Below are positions 2,354 to 61,737 of a DNA stretch of 64,000 nucleotides, one piece after another (positions within the stretch are counted from its first letter, which is position 1; each line of letters opens with the position of its first letter). The translations under genes and the position numbers were made by a program. Source of the stretch: Octopus vulgaris. Taxonomy: Eukaryota. Location: NCBI GenBank assembly GCA_951406725.2, contig OX597824.1, positions 91,636,001 through 91,700,000 on the forward strand, written 5' to 3'. The notes beneath the pieces are model-generated. The model searched no databases, had not been told where the DNA came from, and was given only the letters and a program-made list of their open reading frames with translations.

Positions 2354-2845
2354 CAGAGTATAGTAAATAAATTGTCTAAATTTCGCAAAAATGAAAGTAA
2401 CACTGATATCTCATTTTAACAGATACATTTACCAAAATTACATAAAAATATCTTGAAATACTAAAGAATATATTTATTCACTAAATTCGCCATTGGCTTC
2501 AACCACGGCCTCCAGACGATTTCGGAATCTCTTGCAGCTCTTCTGGACAGTCTCCTTGTTTAAATTGGTGAATGCTGCAATAATCCTTGTCTTCAGTTCA
2601 TCTTTGCTGTTACAAGGAGTTTTGTTGGTCTTTCGCTCAACTACACCCCCACACATAATAATCAAGGGGGTTGCAGTCTATGGAGTTAGGTAACCAGATT
2701 TTAGGGTTGATGTGACCCCAGAAATTGTCTCACAGACACGACTGGCTTCTCCTGCTTGTGCGGCATGACACAGCATCCTGTTCCAGACCTAGGATCTTCC
2801 AGCAGCCACCCTCTTGACCCAGAACCGCACTACCTCTTCCAGGCA
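2354..2845 (-). mobile_element. Tc1/mariner DD37D (maT-like) transposase C-terminal relic with right end
   Basis: Minus-strand translation, with frameshifts and stops: QDAVSCRTSRRSQ..DNF.GHINPKIWLPNSIDCNPLDYYVWGVVER..PCNSKDELKTRI..RLEAVVEANG. Spacing from QD to NPLD is about 37 aa. The element ends at TA-CAG (2352-2356). Confidence 0.85.
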
Positions 2846-3177
2846 TAATAATACTACCTTCACATAATCCAGCAAAGATCTTCTTATCAGTTGTACATTC
2901 CTTTAGGGTCGTGTGCGCATGTGGGTGAGTTTGTGTGTTTAAACGTCTCTCAACATGACGTGAGGGTTATGAATAAGCGCCACTGGCATACTAGTAGTCT
3001 GGTTCTTTTCAATTATTCTGTGTAAATGATGTCTGTGCACAAGGAAAAAATCACGTTGCTTGGAAACAGGTGAAGGTTAGCAACAGCAAAAGCGTCAAAA
3101 AATTCCAGCGGACTCTTGTAAGTATAGAAACGTGGACGTTATAAATACATACATACACACACGCATGCATACATACA

Positions 3178-3210
<33 letters not shown>

Positions 3211-3294
3211 GAGTGTGTATGTCACTGTGTACATATATTTATGTATATACATGTATATATATGTACGTGTATATGTATATTTACGTATATGTAA

Positions 3295-9801: not shown

Positions 9802-9923
9802 ATATAAGGATCAAACAGTTCGATTCAAATTCCTTGTTACTTTAAGTTTCAAGCGTGTCGTATATATATATATATGTGTGTGTCTCTGTGTGTGTTTGTG
9901 GATGTATATATATTACACACCTG

Positions 9924-10636: not shown

Positions 10637-10740
10637 AGATGAAATTTACGGGGAAAACAAGACGAAGACAGGTGTATTAGCTTAACGCTCGGGAAGGTGA
10701 GAAAATCTTTTACGTTTCGAGCCTACGCTCTTCAACAAAT
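10637..10740 (-). mobile_element. Hammerhead-bearing short element (family HA), truncated
   Basis: Minus strand reads ttgttgaagagcgtaggctcgaaacgtaaaag, plus the family tail (tacacctgtcttcgtcttg). Confidence 0.75.
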
Positions 10741-11421: not shown

Positions 11422-11990
11422 TTTTCTGTGTCCCTGTCATTTTTCTCGCCCCTCCTTAATTCTTCTACCCCTCTGCCTCTACCTCTCTCTCTTCTCTTCC
11501 CACGTGACTGGCGTTCGGCCAAGCCTGATCTTTCTTTCTTGGTCTGGCCGTTGTTCGTGCAACATCGATATTACTCCATGTCCCTGTGAAATGTTGTATC
11601 CCTGCCGTAAGGCTTTACTTCCATACACGCCAGCTTAATTTAATTCGCCCTTAGTCGAAAGACACCTGTTGTAATTTCCTGTTATTATTTTTATTGTATT
11701 TGTGTAACATTGTCCGTTTTTTCGTCCTTGTTTTTGTATACATTCGCTTCTTTCTTCAAAGGAATCTAATTCTCTTAGCTTATTTTTTCCTTGGGGCTGG
11801 CCAGATTGAAGCAATCTCGAGTATAATCTGCCGAAATTGCGAAGATAATATGGTACTCGACTGAGGAAAAAAAACTCCGAATGACCTGTCGTTGTTTTCT
11901 TTGTATCGTCTATCTGGATGTTCTGTTGTCTCATTTTTGTATCACCTGTCCGGGTGTTTTGCGTTCATGTCCCATTTTGTATTTTCTATA
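11420..11990 (+). mobile_element. Dispersed TA-flanked repeat family B (other copies 19930-20180 +, 33370-33850 -, 40383-40780 -)
   Basis: Shared blocks: cacgtgac, agtcgaaagacacctgttg, ttccttggggctggccagatt, and an invariant gaCTGA(G/A/T)GA. Copies end gtccc...gt before a TA/CA microsatellite. Confidence 0.75.
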
Positions 11991-12004
11991 TATATACAGA
12001 CAAA

Positions 12005-19241: not shown

Positions 19242-20178
19242 TATATATATGTATATGTGTGGAGCAACAGTGGCTGGGCTTTGAGGGACTCCTGTGATTC
19301 TGCGCTGCGGACATCGTCGAATAACATTACTCCAGAAATCCTTCAGGTAAACCCCATTTCGGCCGTAAGTATTATTGATCATGCCAGCAACATTCATTCG
19401 AAATTGGAACGAAACAAATGCTCACAACCTTACCAATTCTAAACAATATCACATCGATCATTCCTACGTTACCGTCACTTCGGAATGCTCCCACCAACTC
19501 CATCGTCATTGAAATTATGTATATCTATCGGTTCCACCACCACACCATGTCGTTTGTGTCCCTGTCTATTCTTTAACTGTATATTTATCTTCCATTCTAT
19601 GAAGTCCACAATTTAATCACCTGCACCACATCACAACTTGAAGGAGCCCCAGGGCGCTACAAAAGAGATTTTGCATTTTAATTCATGGAGTTAAAAATCG
19701 TGTCACGTAGGCTTCTGTGAATTCCTTATGCAACGTAACCTAATAACGTTCCTTTAGACTCTTCACACACACACATACACACTCACACACACACACACAC
19801 ACTCAAAATACATACACGTACAAATGTATGCGTTTACATGTATATATATATATTGTGTATATAATACATATATGTATATACATAACATATACGAAGAAAT
19901 ATTAAAGTATATAGGTATAGTATATATATATACTCGTGTGGCATCGTCCGTTTTTTCTGTCCTTGTTTCGTATACATTCGATCCTTTTTCCAAGAAATCT
20001 AATGCTCTTAGCTTAGTTTTTCCTTGGGGCTGGCCAGATGGGAGCAATCTCAAGATTAATCAGACGAAATTGCGAGGATGATCCGGTTCTTGACTGAAGA
20101 TTGAAGGCTTCGAATGTCCCGTCCGTGTTTTTTGTATCGTCTTCTAAATGTTTTGCGTTCTTGTCCCAGCTTGTATTC

Positions 20179-25643: not shown

Positions 25644-26088
25644 GTAACAAGAAATATCAACCAAATATCTGATGCACGAACGGGATTGAGAAGCAGGGAA
25701 AGCAATAAAATACGACAACCGATGCAGACTTTGTGGAGTTCACACTGAAGATATTACCCACATCATATGGGTAATATCATCACGGTATCATCTATCGATG
25801 AGACATGATGTACCTAGGACACGCTATAATGAAATTCGTTGGACAATGAAATAAGAACCCACAGTATGGTAGAAGCCGTAGCCACACATAGTAAAAAGGA
25901 ATAATGGTGGAATATCCTTGTGAAGACCTCAATAAAATGTAAGCACAACAGGCCTGATATAATGATTTAGGATAAAGAAGAGAAACTGTGTAGTCATGGA
26001 AATGAGCTACCCAGCTGAAGATAAGCTGAAGATAAATGGAACAGCGAATGTCTTCGATGAATATTGAGAAATCTGCAATTACTCTATC
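25642..26088 (+). mobile_element. RLE (R4/Dong-type) LINE fragment: zinc knuckle plus start of the endonuclease
   Basis: EISTKYL...CRLCGVHTEDITHII (CCHC), MRHD, WWNILVKTSIKCKHNRPDIMI; stops and frameshifts present. Confidence 0.85.
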
Positions 26089-30783: not shown

Positions 30784-31125
30784 AAAACTGAAGAACTGTG
30801 AAAAAGAGTATATCTATGCTGAACTATTGAGAAATCTGCAGTTACTCTCTATCCAGATTACAAATTCAGGTTTATACCTGCAATTAATGGGACCCTGGGA
30901 TATATAGCACACTGCCTAAATACCAATCTTGAGAGATTAGGCTTCTCAAAACTAGGAATGAGGAAGCTAATTCGAAGACTACAGATCCAATCCAACACTG
31001 GAACCGTAAAAATCTGTGAAACTTGCTAGAAGTTTATCATTTAAATATATATGAGCATGTCTAGATATGTAACTATATGCATGAGAATACATACATAAAA
31101 CATACAAATCCGCACATCCATCCAT
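30784..31125 (+). mobile_element. RLE LINE 3' fragment inserted in (CATA)n
   Basis: Homologous to the reverse complement of 60110-60445 (YAELLRNLQLL..PDYKFRFIP...IQSNTGTVKIC). Confidence 0.88.
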
Positions 31126-31403: not shown

Positions 31404-31501
31404 AAAAAATATGGTACGCTTCACAAATTTGCGTGTCGTCCTTGTGTAGGGGCCATGCTAATCTTCTCTGTATCATTCAAATTTTTTTGCCGAAGCAATA
31501 C
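31404..31501 (-). pseudogene. U6: U6 snRNA pseudogene
   Basis: Minus strand gtattgcttcggca-aaaaaatttgaatgatACAGAGAAGATTAGCATGGCCCCTacacaaggacgacacgcaaatttgtgaagcgtaccatatttttt. About 10 nt of the 5' stem-loop region are missing and there are several substitutions. Confidence 0.95.
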
Positions 31502-33346: not shown

Positions 33347-34017
33347 TATATATATGTATATATATGTATGTATGTATATAAACGGGACAAAAACGCAATA
33401 GAGGGCATTGAAATGTTCTGACAGATAGACGACACAAAGGCAGACAAGAGAAACAACAATTAGAAGGACAGGCAAAAAAAGACAGGTCATTCTTGGCTTT
33501 CTTTCATCAGTCAAGTACCAGAAGTCAAGAACATTTAGGACAGTTACACATGAGATGGTTCCATCTTGTTCTAAGAGTATTAGAGCCCCTTGTAAGAAAG
33601 CTAGCGAATGTGTACGGCAACAAAGACAAAAAACCAGAGAACACGGTAAACAATCACAAATACAAACAACAAGGATATAACAACAGGTGTCTTTCGACTG
33701 AGAACGACTCAAATTGAGTCGGCGTGTATGAAGTGAAAGCCTGAAGGCAGAAACATAGGTGATGGATATATGAGGTGTTGGCGGTCGGCGGTCAGACCAA
33801 AACAGAAAGATCACGGCTGGTCGGACACCGGTCACGTGGAAGGAAAAGATATGGGTAGGGGAGAAATTTCGTATTTGTATTTGGTTTGCAAGATTCTTTA
33901 TATGAATTCGTGTTTTGAAACATATTCTGTTGTCTGGGGAGAGTCATTCTCTTTTTGTGCCTTATTACTTAACATATTCACTGGTTCCATTTCCAGTCAT
34001 TTACTTATTTAGTTTTC

Positions 34018-35850: not shown

Positions 35851-36019
35851 GACGTCGATTCCTCTGAGGTGTTGTTTCGCATTTATAATAAAATAAATAT
35901 ATGTGAATTATGTGAAGGCAGATTTCGTAGGAGTTAGAGCAGCGAACATGGGATCGAGGGATCGCAGGTTCGAATCTCAAACTGGGAGTTGTGTGTGTTT
36001 ATGAGCGAAACATCTTCGC

Positions 36020-36255
36020 TCATATGTACCTAAATGATAAACTTCTGGAAAGTTTTACAGATATTTACAGTTCCAGTGATGGATTGGATCTGTAGTCTTC
36101 GAATTAGCTGTCTACTTTCTGCTTTTGAGAAGCCTAATTTCTCAAGATTGGCATTTAGGCAGTGTGTTACGTATCTCAGGGCCCCAATAATTACAGGTAA
36201 AAACCTGAACTTGTAATCTGGATAGAGTAACTGCAGATTTCTCAATAGTTCAGCG
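36020..36255 (-). mobile_element. RLE LINE 3' fragment
   Basis: YAELLRNLQLLYPDYKFRFLPVIIGALRYVTHCLNANLEKLGFSK...TFQKFII; the 5' junction lies in catgcatacatac. Confidence 0.9.
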
Positions 36256-36454
36256 TATGTATGCATGTATATGACAGGCTTCCACACAATCTCCGCCTAC
36301 TAAATTCCCTCACAAGGAATTGGTCGGTGTTCGGGGCTGTAGTAGAAGAGACGAGCTCGAGGTACCGTGCAATGGGACTGAAACCGAAGCCACATGGCTT
36401 CAAAGCGAGCATCTTTACCTCACAACCATACTGGCGCATGTTTAGTGAATAATT

Positions 36455-40190: not shown

Positions 40191-40809
40191 AAAGAAGAAA
40201 AAGAAAAGAAAGAGTGAGAAGTGAATCGTGTATGTATATATATGTATATATAAAATGAGATAGGGGTTGAAAATTCAACCCACCATGGGATAATATATTG
40301 AGTATCATCGGATAGTTGATGTTTTACTGATTTAAGTATGTTTCTCCATTCTCTAATTTTGTATATGTATATATATATATATAATACAAAATGGGACAAG
40401 AACGCAAAACATCCGGACAGTTAGGTGATACAAAAATGGGACAACAAAACATCCAGATAGATGATGCAATTCGGAGTTTTCTTTCCTCAGTCGAGTTCCA
40501 AATTATCTTCACAATTTCGGTTGATTATACTCGAGATTGCTCCAATCTGGCCAGCCCCAAGGAAAAACTACGCTAAGAGCATTAGATTCCTTGGAAGAAA
40601 GCAGCAAATGTATATGAAAACAAGGACGAAAAAAAAACGGAGTATGTTACACAAATACAATAAAAATATTAACAGGACATAACAACAGGTGTCTTTCGAC
40701 TAAGGACGAATTAAATTCAGCTGGCGTGTGTGGAAATAAATCCTTACGGCAGGGATACAAGATTTCACAGGCACAGGGACGAATTTCTTTTAAGTTCTTT
40801 TCAGTCCTT

Positions 40810-40867
40810 CCCCACATCTGATGATGTAGACATGTTCTACGTATACGAAACTTTAAGTCATGCGGGG
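40810..40867 (+). ncRNA. Type I hammerhead ribozyme, canonical core, GUC site
   Basis: ccccacat-CTGATGA-t-gta..tac-GAAA-ctttaag-TC-atgcgggg: stem I 7/8 bp, near-palindromic stem III. Confidence 0.78.
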
Positions 40868-41220
40868 TTGAGTCAAACTGTTATTACACACACACATATG
40901 CGACGGACTTACACAATTTCTCTCAGTCAAATTCACTCAAAAACCATTTGATCGCTTGTGGCTGTAGCAGGTGACACTTGTACAAGATACTACGCAATGG
41001 AACTGAACCCAAAACCGCGAGGATACGAAGCGATATTGTTAACCGCGATGCACAGACGCGATGCAACGATGATTTACGGTATTTGTTCATTGAAACTTTA
41101 ATATCTATTTTCGACGAAATGTTCTTATTTAATTACATTTAAGTCACATGCCATTATGAAGCGCGCATTCGGTTTGTTGAGTTCACTATATCTATGATTT
41201 TCATGCCTGTGAAATAAACG

Positions 41221-59204: not shown

Positions 59205-59915
59205 CATTTTAAAAATTATATGGAGTTCTTTTACTCCAAACACAGATGTCCTTGCATCTGCTGGCATCGCCTCCATTAAAGCTATGATTTTGAGGAACCA
59301 ATTGAGATGATGAGGCCATATTGTTCGAATGGCAGATGAACGCATGCCGAAACAACTGTTTTATGGTGAGCTTGCAGAGGGGAAACGCTATCGGCGTAAA
59401 CCTAAAAGAAAAGGTTTAAGGGTGGCATAGGGACTTGGAATGGTTCCATGAAGTCACTTGGAATGGTTCCAGAAGACATAGAAATCTTTGCTTCGGATCG
59501 AACTGGATGGCGAACAAAGGTGTGGAATGGAGTGAAAGCATTTGAAGAGGCCAGGATAACACAAGTGAGACTCAAGAGGGATCGAAAGAAAAAAGTAACG
59601 ATCGAGAAGGTGAATGACAATGACCTTTTTGTGTGCACAATCTGTGACAGATTAGACCTGTCTTTGGCTGGCCTCAGATCTTTTCTGCGAACCCATGGAA
59701 AACGAACCTTCACCAACTATTCTGCCTATATGTCTGTGCACACCTTTGAATGCAGTGTATGCCGGGAGATTTGCAAATCCAGCGGAGGCCTCAAAAGACA
59801 TTTAAAAATCCAGAAAGGGCATAACTGTAGGTGGTCCAAATCGGATGTGCAATCTATGTGAGTGTATTTTCAGAACATTGTCTCTTTTAGAAAGTCACAT
59901 TAGGTGCCATGATAG
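59205..59915 (+). mobile_element. RTE (BovB-like) LINE 3' fragment with C2H2-like zinc fingers
   Basis: RILKI.W...TPNTDVL..AGI.SI.AM....QLR**GHIVRMADERMPKQLFYGELAEGKR, then A.DRTGWR, CTICDR..LRTH and CSVC..KRHLK. Confidence 0.88.
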
Positions 59916-59984: not shown

Positions 59985-60578
59985 GTGTCTGTTTTATTTG
60001 AAGATTTCTTGCCAATGGAGAAAGAACCGGTTTCTAATCTAGATCCAAGGATCCTTCTTTGGAATTTCAACCCCAGGGTATTTTTTTTTGTATGTATGTA
60101 TGTGGATGTGCAGATTTCTATGTTTTGTTTTATGTATGTATTCTCATGCATATAATTGCATATATAGACATGCTCATATATATTTAAATGATAAACTTCT
60201 GGTAAGTTTTACAGACTTTTACAGTTCCAGTGATGGGTTGGATCTGTAGTCTTCGAATTAGCTTTCTCTTTTTTGGTTTTGAGAAGCCTAATTTCTCAAG
60301 ATTGATATTTATGCAGTGTGTTAAATATCCCAGGGCCCCAATAATTACAGATATGAACGTGAACTTGTAATCTGGATAGAGTAACTGCAGATTTCTCCAT
60401 AGTTCAGCGTAGATGTTCTCTTTTTCACTGATCTTCAGTTTTATGTTAACATCCGCAGGGCAGATAATTTCCACAACTGAACACAGTTTCTCTTCTCTAT
60501 CCCAAATCATTAAATCAGGTCTGTTGTGCTTACATTTTATAGAGGTCTTCACTGGGACTTCCCACTAGTATTCCTTTT
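59985..60578 (-). mobile_element. RLE (R4/Dong-type) LINE: endonuclease domain plus full 3' UTR, in (CATA)n
   Basis: KHNRPDLMIWDREEKLCSVVEIICPAD...K.SEKENIYAEL (PD-D/E-K restriction-like endonuclease); the UTR ends AATAAA..catacat. Confidence 0.92.
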
Positions 60579-60718
60579 TATGTATGTATGTATGTATGTA
60601 TGTATGTATGTATGTATGTATGTATGTATGTATCTTTTAACTTTTACTCGTTTAACTCAGTGGGACTGAACCCGGAACCATGTGGTTGGTAAGCAAGCTA
60701 ATTACTACACAGCTGCTC

Positions 60719-60786
<68 letters not shown>

Positions 60787-60795
60787 GAAGTAAAC

Positions 60796-60841
60796 AAAAC
60801 TGTCCGACGAACGGGAACGTGAAACTCTGAGTAACAGTTTT
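60796..60841 (+). ncRNA. Minimal type I hammerhead ribozyme (C4 variant)
   Basis: aaaactgt-CCGACGA-ACG-ggaa-CGT-GAAA-ctc-t-gag-TA-acagtttt: perfect 8-bp stem I, GNRA-capped stem II, GUA site. Lies in a ~90-bp insert between (TA)n tracts. Confidence 0.82.
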
Positions 60842-61737
60842 TTGTTGAATTTCTGGTGCTTTTAAATAAAGTATATATATATATACATGTATAGGTATAC
60901 TGTCTGTCTATCTCTCTATACGCACGTATTTCTTTATGCGTGTGTGTGAGTATGTGCGTGCGTGCGCGTGTGCGTGTACAATGCATACATATAATCGCCG
61001 TCTGGCTTGTTAATCTCTGTTAACTAAGCAGAAGACACTGCGATAATAAATCATAATTCATCGTTTTGAAAACATTAATTATGCATCTCTCCGTGCGACC
61101 GAACCAGAGAGAGAAAAGAGAGAAAGCGAGAGAGAGAGAAAGAGTGAAAGAGAAAGAGAAGAAGTGAGTGAGGTTGAGAGAATGAATAAAGGATTTTGAA
61201 TTAATTATATTTCTGTCAATTAACAGAAGCGATGCTAATTCAAATATCTTCACCCAACGCCCACTGAAAGTGTTACACCGTGAGAATGCTAACTCAAGGA
61301 TCGTATACATTGCAGAGCGAAAATATAGGTGAAATGTTCGAAAAAGAAAAAAATAAATAATTACAACCAGTTAGCAGATCACTTGAACCAATTATTCATC
61401 CGGAGATAATCACTTATGGGTGCAGTGTGTTCAAGAACACGAAAAATATATCAGTAGGAGAAGAAAGACGTCCAGCAACGGCGGTAAGAATGAAAAATGT
61501 GCTTTTCTGCGTCTTTGGGATTTGCGAGGAATGTTATACGCTCCGAAAATGTCATAACCAACTCAAGTGGTTTCATACACGCTGTTTAGTAAGGAGAAAT
61601 TTTCTTGCGAGAGTACTTTCGCAGCGATAGTCTATCCGCGTCCGAGTGTACATGAACCTGTCATGGGAAATATAATTGTAAGATAAAACTTTTTTGTAAA
61701 TGGATGCATGGCGTTCGGTCATATAATAATATGAATA

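Follow-up and report, generated by a model that had tools for sequence, protein, structure and literature searches.

The window is a 64-kb stretch of eukaryotic DNA that is AT-rich, dense in microsatellites and short repeats, and equipped with a U6 gene; it has the look of an animal genome, perhaps of a cephalopod. It carries an insert of 89 bp at 60783-60871, whose length is set by the (TA)29 tract on its left (60725-60782, likely the target site) and by the (TA)7 tract on its right (60872-60885). The original prediction of an insert of about 90 bp between two (TA)n tracts is thus borne out. The 14 bp of the right-hand tract fit a target-site duplication, but the microsatellite context would give the same letters anyway. 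Only the 81-bp segment 60791-60871 (+) matches a repeat family, as judged from the depth, pieces and loose ends of assembled contigs, and it is likely the 5'-truncated 3' end of a Penelope-like element (PLE). The 3' end of the element, 60847-60871 (+), is delimited by shared piece ends and by relatives; it closes 38 nt past the predicted ribozyme cut site and is the likely starting point of reverse transcription. The 8 nt at the 5' junction, 60783-60790 (+), lie outside the family, whose matches start later and with a step in depth, and are likely junction filler. A splice-junction origin of these letters, which end in AAG, was rejected, the family having no AG directly before 60791.

Other repeats lie upstream. 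The piece at 60655-60720, which we take to be SINE-like, belongs to an abundant repeat with about 10 copies in the window and ends at the (TA)n tract that holds the insert. At 60103-60578 (-) lies the 3' fragment of another repeat, with further copies at 25883-26088, 30785-31120 and 36018-36257; it has a 126-aa open frame bearing a KHNRPDL motif, which we presume to be that of the restriction-like nuclease of R2/HERO-type LINEs, and its label of LINE-like is likewise our assumption. A Pfam search with this frame returned no named family. A link between the insert and the LINE-like fragment was rejected, since the two lie on opposite strands, the other window copies of the fragment have no hammerhead motif, and the SINE-like piece and two microsatellites stand in between. 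A 151-aa open frame at 59406-59861 (+) shows weak C2H2 zinc-finger matches below the cut-off, like the C-terminus of a LINE ORF.

The hammerhead motif and its predicted folding

The type I hammerhead motif spans 60796-60841 on the forward strand. The 5' strand of stem I (60796-60803, from a strict descriptor and sequence inspection) forms eight of eight pairs with the 3' strand (60834-60841), and the letters up to 60846 could extend this helix by distal pairing with 60793-60797. Between the two strands lie the core from C3 to A9, CCGACGA (60804-60810), a 3-bp stem II with a GGAA loop and an A-U first pair, ACG-GGAA-CGT (60811-60820), the GAAA (60821-60824, by inspection) and, within the GAAA-to-GUA segment 60821-60833, a palindromic stem III, ACUC-U-GAGU, whose CTC-T-GAG occupies 60825-60831. 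The GUA triplet is at 60831-60833 and the predicted cut lies directly 3' of 60833. Every part of the motif named in the original prediction was found at its position, and the arrangement of three helices around the core, with stem I open-ended, is that of type I. The strict descriptor finds this motif once in the window and in none of 200 block-wise dinucleotide shuffles. An Rfam search of the locus gave no hammerhead match at the gathering score or at E values up to 10, and in minimum free energy (MFE) folding alone the locus is no better than shuffled sequence.

In the usual hammerhead numbering, C3, G5, A6, G8, A9, G12, A13, A14, the pair A15.1-U16.1 and H17 are all present. The consensus U4 is absent, 60805 being C (U4C); the preferred pair G10.1-C11.1 is replaced by A10.1-U11.1, and no unpaired base precedes position 10.1. 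Because position 4 is C, and a natural U4C viroid variant with lowered activity has been reported (PMC3088659), the locus is a core-variant hammerhead motif, not a canonical hammerhead. The claim of an intact hammerhead thus holds for the helices and the layout, but it overlooked the core variant, both U4C and A10.1-U11.1.

The original prediction also held that the stem III loop cannot close in a monomer. The innermost C-G pair is indeed barred, but a 3-pair stem III with a CUG loop is possible, at -6.0 kcal/mol against an MFE of -7.0, that is, 1.0 above it, and the energy model gives it a pair probability of about 0.1. For two molecules, the same kind of model assigns -24.1 kcal/mol to the double hammerhead and -14.0 to two monomers. 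Dimerisation gains -11.1, as compared with -5.4 ± 2.0 after shuffling of the 7 stem III letters, and 2 of 200 such shuffles match it. The self-duplex of stem III, a short palindromic pairing between two copies, is computed at -7.9 kcal/mol. In these models stem III is predicted to be stable only in a dimer. The motif is of the dimer type and dimer folding appears favoured, as had been proposed, but not strictly required, given that the monomer fold lies 1.0 above the MFE and that two shuffles equal the gain.

Both U4C and A10.1-U11.1 are expected to slow cleavage. For the U4C viroid variant, activity considerably lower in vitro has been reported, with infection still possible, and G10.1-C11.1 is described as among the most conserved hammerhead pairs, although natural exceptions exist (PMC3088659). 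Single minimal PLE hammerheads have been reported to show no cleavage and dimers little (PMC4209133). The two substitutions, the solo state of the copy in the window, and published accounts of single PLE hammerheads as inactive or dependent on protein make a still-active ribozyme seem less likely than originally thought. We would give about even odds that this sequence cuts as a dimer in vitro, and about one chance in ten that the window copy cuts to any effect in vivo.

Further hammerhead-like motifs and repeats occur elsewhere in the window. At 40810-40886 (+) there is a second type I hammerhead motif with a canonical CUGAUGA core, a palindromic CTT-T-AAG stem III and a UC site; seven of eight stem I pairs form, stem II is long and disordered, and the 3' end resembles that of an insert at 9807-9860 described below. 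Another repeat with a minimal hammerhead-like motif is present in five decayed copies, at 10734 (-), 15989 (+), 19015 (+), 33255 (+) and 48012 (-), with stem II followed by GAAA-CG-UA and a damaged C3-A9 core in each. An unclassified repeat family of about 400-500 bp (40384-40787, 11490-11996, 19936-20155 and 33571-33849) has, about 110 nt inside one of its ends, a decayed CTGANGA...GAA motif. The U6 snRNA gene or pseudogene, at 31405-31499 (-), scores 87.3 bits and has a shortened 5' part.

The repeat family in the host

Part of a 91-nt stretch at the locus was found in 22 of 24 listed sequencing runs, from 13 studies, by a weak search with 5 words. The family itself was read from the contigs of four runs (X1, X2, X5 and X9), one each from four organisms. 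In all four, contigs pile up on the motif at very high summed depth (111,754, 234,673, 996,719 and 121,909 over 60814-60824), so that the other genomic copies looked for do exist in large number. The unique flank is covered at a depth of 16.7 by a single X5 contig; summed depth is not a copy number, but the gap amounts to several orders of magnitude. One and the same variant occurs in as many as 110 contigs of a run. X5 is the only one of the four runs to cover the unique flank, and its one contig on 60872-61075 has 5 differences in 204 and leaves its first two letters unaligned to the insert end, which is compatible with an empty site or with a longer TA run.

Among the matches listed, those to the family begin at 60790-60798 and not at 60783, and depth rises from 135-1594 at 60781-60791 to 25,122-214,630 in the bin that follows; the TA run is where many pieces end, at 60876-60893. 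The loose ends before 60791 share, again among the matches listed, a consensus ending GTTCCATTC in X1, X2 and X5 (59, 80 and 71 contigs, respectively). Since this consensus is shared by three runs, the family continues upstream of 60791 and the window copy is 5'-truncated. The upstream consensus comprises 30 letters with an agreement of about 0.52, which limits the link that can be drawn from the host family to the elements discussed below. Within the 64-kb window, blastn found no other copy of the family, and a search with three short family motifs returned the locus itself, the rest being at chance level; there is no tandem array of the motif in the window, and the copy is solo.

A second set of loose ends, present in all four runs among the matches listed, has ATCAC before 60798 and GTGAT behind 60842, and these complementary letters of a second subfamily would form another distal stem I if they lie on one molecule. 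Opposite-strand joints (60791/60830 and 60793/60850) and head-to-tail joints (60889 to 60791 and 60842 to 60791) were each found in few contigs among the matches listed, and they match the inverted and tandem forms of PLEs. The family thus shows 5' truncation together with inverted and partial-tandem copies, the latter two from joints in few contigs; inverted joints have been described as a mark of PLEs (bioRxiv 10.1101/2021.04.23.441226).

Within 60796-60841, variants of at least 3% occur at 60809, 60812, 60828, 60834, 60838 and 60839. Those at 60809, a core base, and 60812 are of CpG type, the A to G change at 60834 keeps a wobble pair, and those at 60838 are common in the family; 60828, the stem III loop base, varies more than any other place in the core and stems II and III. 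At 60805 no variant reaches 3% in any of the four runs, which makes C4 the family majority, and A-U at 10.1/11.1 is family-wide like U4C. The window copy has a private change at 60856, outside the motif, where 98-99% of the depth differs from it.

Relatives in Penelope-like elements and the ends of their short copies

Relatives were sought with a looser pattern in metagenome contigs, giving at least 137 motifs at a minimum of 120 loci; an earlier pattern closer to the window sequence gave no match there, and viral contigs scanned for the motif gave none. The pattern was taken from the window motif and fixes stems I and III, so that identity in these stems is no evidence and only the remainder counts. 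In the relatives, stem II and the 3' end differ in sequence from the window copy. Among the matches listed, U4 is found in 137 of 137 motifs, although the pattern allowed C; the 10.1-11.1 pair is G-C in 129 of 137, a 12-nt stem II segment is present in 135 of 137, and the outer pair of stem I, which lies outside the search pattern, is C-G in 129 of 137. In an alignment of 15 rows (the window copy and 14 relatives picked for diversity), stem II changes on both sides in three of four pairs; its covariation comprises 10 cells changed on both sides, a value reached by none of 500 shuffles. A profile of 18 relatives matches 60793-60839 with an E value of 4.4e-8, a figure that is partly circular. 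The original prediction had been staked on related copies that keep the helices, and such copies exist, with covariation of stem II in the relatives.

The motifs of the relatives lie in terminal repeats of PLEs at the metagenome loci. In L047, the motif precedes a 714-aa reverse transcriptase/GIY-YIG ORF (P0001) with the motifs of the Hydra clade, namely DKT in the reverse transcriptase, a CxCX5C linker and, at the C-terminus, GIY-YIG, without CCHH. The same motif is followed after 5 nt from ACAG by GTGAT and has TCATCA upstream, like the second subfamily of the host; L047 is the only one of the 137 relatives, among the matches listed, with that GTGAT, and the likeness was noticed post hoc and lies outside the pattern. 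The ORF of L047 (507-2651) appears to be an intact Hydra-type PLE frame and is followed by a partial tandem copy at 2706-3260 with 97% identity.

P0001 has at least 2,524 homologues, and among 121 proteins DKT is present in 109 and CxCX5C in 119. Pfam and PDB sequence searches with P0001 returned nothing named, and an Atlas search returned clusters in which some of the proteins carry HTH_animal, GIY-YIG and RVT_1. Among the matches listed, 12 of 120 loci match P0001, and in seven of them (L001, L015, L024, L071, L107, L110 and L120; about five independent) the ORF's C-terminus lies on the motif's strand, 125-189 nt upstream of it; L097, where the ORF end is on the opposite strand, was left out. 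On the basis of these motifs rather than of a tree, the element of the relatives is probably a Hydra-clade PLE. For this clade, insertion in (TA)n has been reported in all families, and hammerheads have been detected (bioRxiv 10.1101/2021.04.23.441226); the window copy, too, is inserted in (TA)n. It has no ORF, and the terminal-repeat position is one seen in the relatives, not in the host family. Since a search of the window with a profile and the 121 proteins revealed no fragment of a Hydra-type PLE ORF, the link of the host family to PLEs is one of terminal-repeat homology. Head-to-head inverted pairs of terminal repeats, joined just upstream of stem I, were observed in L002, L010, L011, L019, L026, L030, L064, L074, L077 and others; past the motif, one arm extends for about 31 nt and its partner for about 100 nt, with a tail on one end.

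The ends of the relatives were mapped in the two main families, which hold 108 distinct copies of the 137 motifs listed once other families and duplicates are set aside, the extent of each copy being how far it matches longer natural copies. Among the matches listed, 35 of the 108 copies run off their contig on the 5' side. The 72 mapped 5' ends, in the same listed set, fall within 15 nt of the motif, that is, of stem I, in 62 cases, at 16-25 nt in 2, at 26-60 nt in none and beyond 60 nt in 8; for the 31 listed solo copies, which have no inverted partner, the corresponding numbers are 22, 1, 0 and 8. Two biases act on this distribution, since cuts within the motif escape the pattern and short copies have an advantage in short-read assembly, but ends at 16-25 nt should have shown up, because contigs ran 27-68 nt upstream before breaking. 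Of 96 copies among the matches listed, 64 have their 3' end 26-40 nt beyond the motif and 28 have it further out, with an optional tail.

An exact duplication of 11-15 bp is present in 8 of the 14 short solo copies listed with both ends. Eight hammerhead-only inserts of 69-89 bp, also among the matches listed, have target duplications of 11-15 bp and some of them filler at the 5' junction; they comprise seven of the duplicated short solo copies and L012, L060 (136 bp) being left out. The 5' ends of such short copies vary from copy to copy, with different filler. With 10 nt upstream and 35 nt downstream of the motif, 8 nt of filler and 14 bp of TA, the window copy fits this short form. Only 9 of the 83 tail-less relatives listed end in (TA)4 or more, so that their target bias is towards AT-rich DNA rather than strictly towards (TA)n. 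In the window itself, an insert of 54 bp at 9807-9860 (-), flanked by TA runs, begins within stem II of a related hammerhead and retains its 3' half only (GAAA, CTT-A-AAG, UA, the stem I 3' strand and a 30-nt end). It is a truncation product without an intact ribozyme; since its cut falls inside the hammerhead, an intact ribozyme is not required for short inserts.

The clustering of 5' ends may be caused by run-off at the 5' end of the transcript, by stalling at stem I or by microhomology capture at an A/T-rich run. In the literature consulted, mostly listings and without supplements, we found no description of this family or of 5' ends clustered at a hammerhead. We tentatively suggest, at well below even odds, that the transposition of Hydra-clade PLEs yields, as a programmed by-product, inserts of 70-90 bp with the hammerhead only; the enzyme would start inside the RNA just 3' of the first (5'-proximal) uncut hammerhead and run off the RNA 5' end a few bases past stem I. 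If so, the stubs would mark where the transcript starts and prove that the in vivo template is uncut RNA; the U4C-wide family would demonstrate that mass amplification can proceed with a slowed ribozyme.

Origin of the insert and comparison with known systems

Based on the above data, we propose that the insert carries a type I hammerhead motif belonging to a highly abundant repeat family, and that it likely represents the 3' end of a PLE truncated on its 5' side, probably of the Hydra clade, and likely written into (TA)n by the enzyme of that element. We put the probability of this reading at roughly three in four. What is observed is the motif, its many copies, the continuation of the family upstream of 60791 and the same motif in PLE terminal repeats, presumably of other animals. 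The mechanism, modelled on the relatives and on the PAc element of Anolis (PMC11167929), would begin with a nick made in AT-rich DNA by the GIY-YIG nuclease of the element. Reverse transcription would then start within the RNA, at a point about 35-40 nt 3' to where the ribozyme cuts, pass through the uncut hammerhead and stop about 10 nt past stem I, and repair would add the 8 nt and duplicate about 14 bp of (TA)n. For PAc, reverse transcription has been reported to start inside the RNA downstream of the hammerhead in vitro, with uncut RNA as the main substrate, ribozyme cutting only when protein is present, and an RNA requirement for insertion extending well downstream of the ribozyme (PMC11167929). 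In a tandem transcript of the parent element, two hammerheads are predicted to pair through their palindromic stem III and to cut after GUA. Lacking an ORF, a known promoter and a partner in cis, the window copy is probably an inert passenger.

The very high abundance of the host family, in which no ORF was seen, would also suit a longer non-coding derivative, either a non-LTR retrozyme or a SINE-like unit built on the terminal repeat of a PLE, that depends for its movement on a PLE enzyme acting in trans and of which the insert is a truncated piece. Head-to-tail joints exist, as this would predict, and animal retrozymes have been argued to derive from PLE terminal repeats (10.64898/2026.07.22.740005). 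We nevertheless consider such an origin unlikely, since the window has no tandem array, many pieces run from the motif into the TA run at the same 3' point, as insertion ends do, and the inverted joints are a mark of PLEs. More doubtful still is the minimal mobile unit of the original prediction, in which a ribozyme RNA of 80-90 nt would be transcribed, dimerise and be re-copied by a PLE enzyme. The motif is intact and the short form very common, as the 22 of 31 listed solo relatives that stop within 15 nt illustrate, and the reading as an insertion with related copies stands, given the many copies in the host family. The idea of a self-contained unit is not supported, because the family continues upstream and the short inserts of the relatives are 5'-truncated ends of protein-coding PLEs. 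The copies have no fixed 5' end, the letters 60783-60790 of the window copy being unshared in the family and the 5' ends and filler of other short copies differing from one to the next; moreover, self-cleavage after GUA would split so short an RNA, and the downstream RNA required in PAc-type insertion (PMC11167929) is absent from the window copy.

Selection of this copy as an active host ribozyme at its locus would account for its perfect helices, but the family majority is equally perfect, the private change at 60856 lies outside the motif, U4C is reported to lower activity in vitro (PMC3088659) and the window offers no partner; we regard it as very improbable. A chance motif would agree with the missing Rfam match and with a folding energy no better than that of shuffles. 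It is refuted by the absence of the motif from all 200 shuffles, by its many copies and by the covariation of stem II in the relatives, equalled in none of 500 shuffles, and we give it practically no weight.

As the likely truncated end of a PLE, the insert belongs to a known kind of element; what deserves further attention is that 5' ends cluster at the ribozyme. The single locus, a truncated copy among very many, matters little; as a sample, it is relevant to the purpose of PLE hammerheads, which has been called unclear (bioRxiv 10.1101/2021.04.23.441226), and the PAc hammerhead has been reported to be dispensable in vitro (PMC11167929). Two observations can be used. One is that the 5' ends accumulate no more than 15 nt from stem I; the other, that a family whose core substitution is expected to slow cleavage has become widespread in several related genomes.

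PLE hammerheads that cleave as dimers have reportedly been described by Lunse et al. The insert shares with the small type I hammerheads of PLEs (Cervera and De la Pena 2014, PMC4209133) the type I fold, the tiny palindromic stem III and the dimer architecture, as well as the occurrence mostly as solo genomic copies, which were ascribed to truncated PLEs. It differs from those described there in its long, perfect 8-bp stem I and short 3-bp stem II, in having no unpaired base before 10.1 and A-U in place of G10.1-C11.1, and in U4C as the family majority. With Hydra-clade PLEs (Craig et al. 2021, bioRxiv 10.1101/2021.04.23.441226) it has in common a hammerhead in what is likely a terminal repeat, the (TA)n target, 5' truncation and inverted and tandem joints, and its nearest motif relatives adjoin an ORF with DKT and CxCX5C and without CCHH; in contrast, the window copy has no ORF and the protein of the host family is unseen. 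Animal non-LTR retrozymes (10.64898/2026.07.22.740005) are likewise non-coding, PLE-related and equipped with a type I hammerhead, whereas the window holds a solo piece of 81 bp, whose defined 3' end lies in (TA)n, and no tandem units each with a hammerhead. The Poseidon element PAc of Anolis resembles our proposal in its internal start of reverse transcription downstream of the hammerhead, its AT-rich target and its optional tail, but it belongs to another clade, and its hammerhead is reported to overlap the ORF start and to cut only with protein present (PMC11167929).
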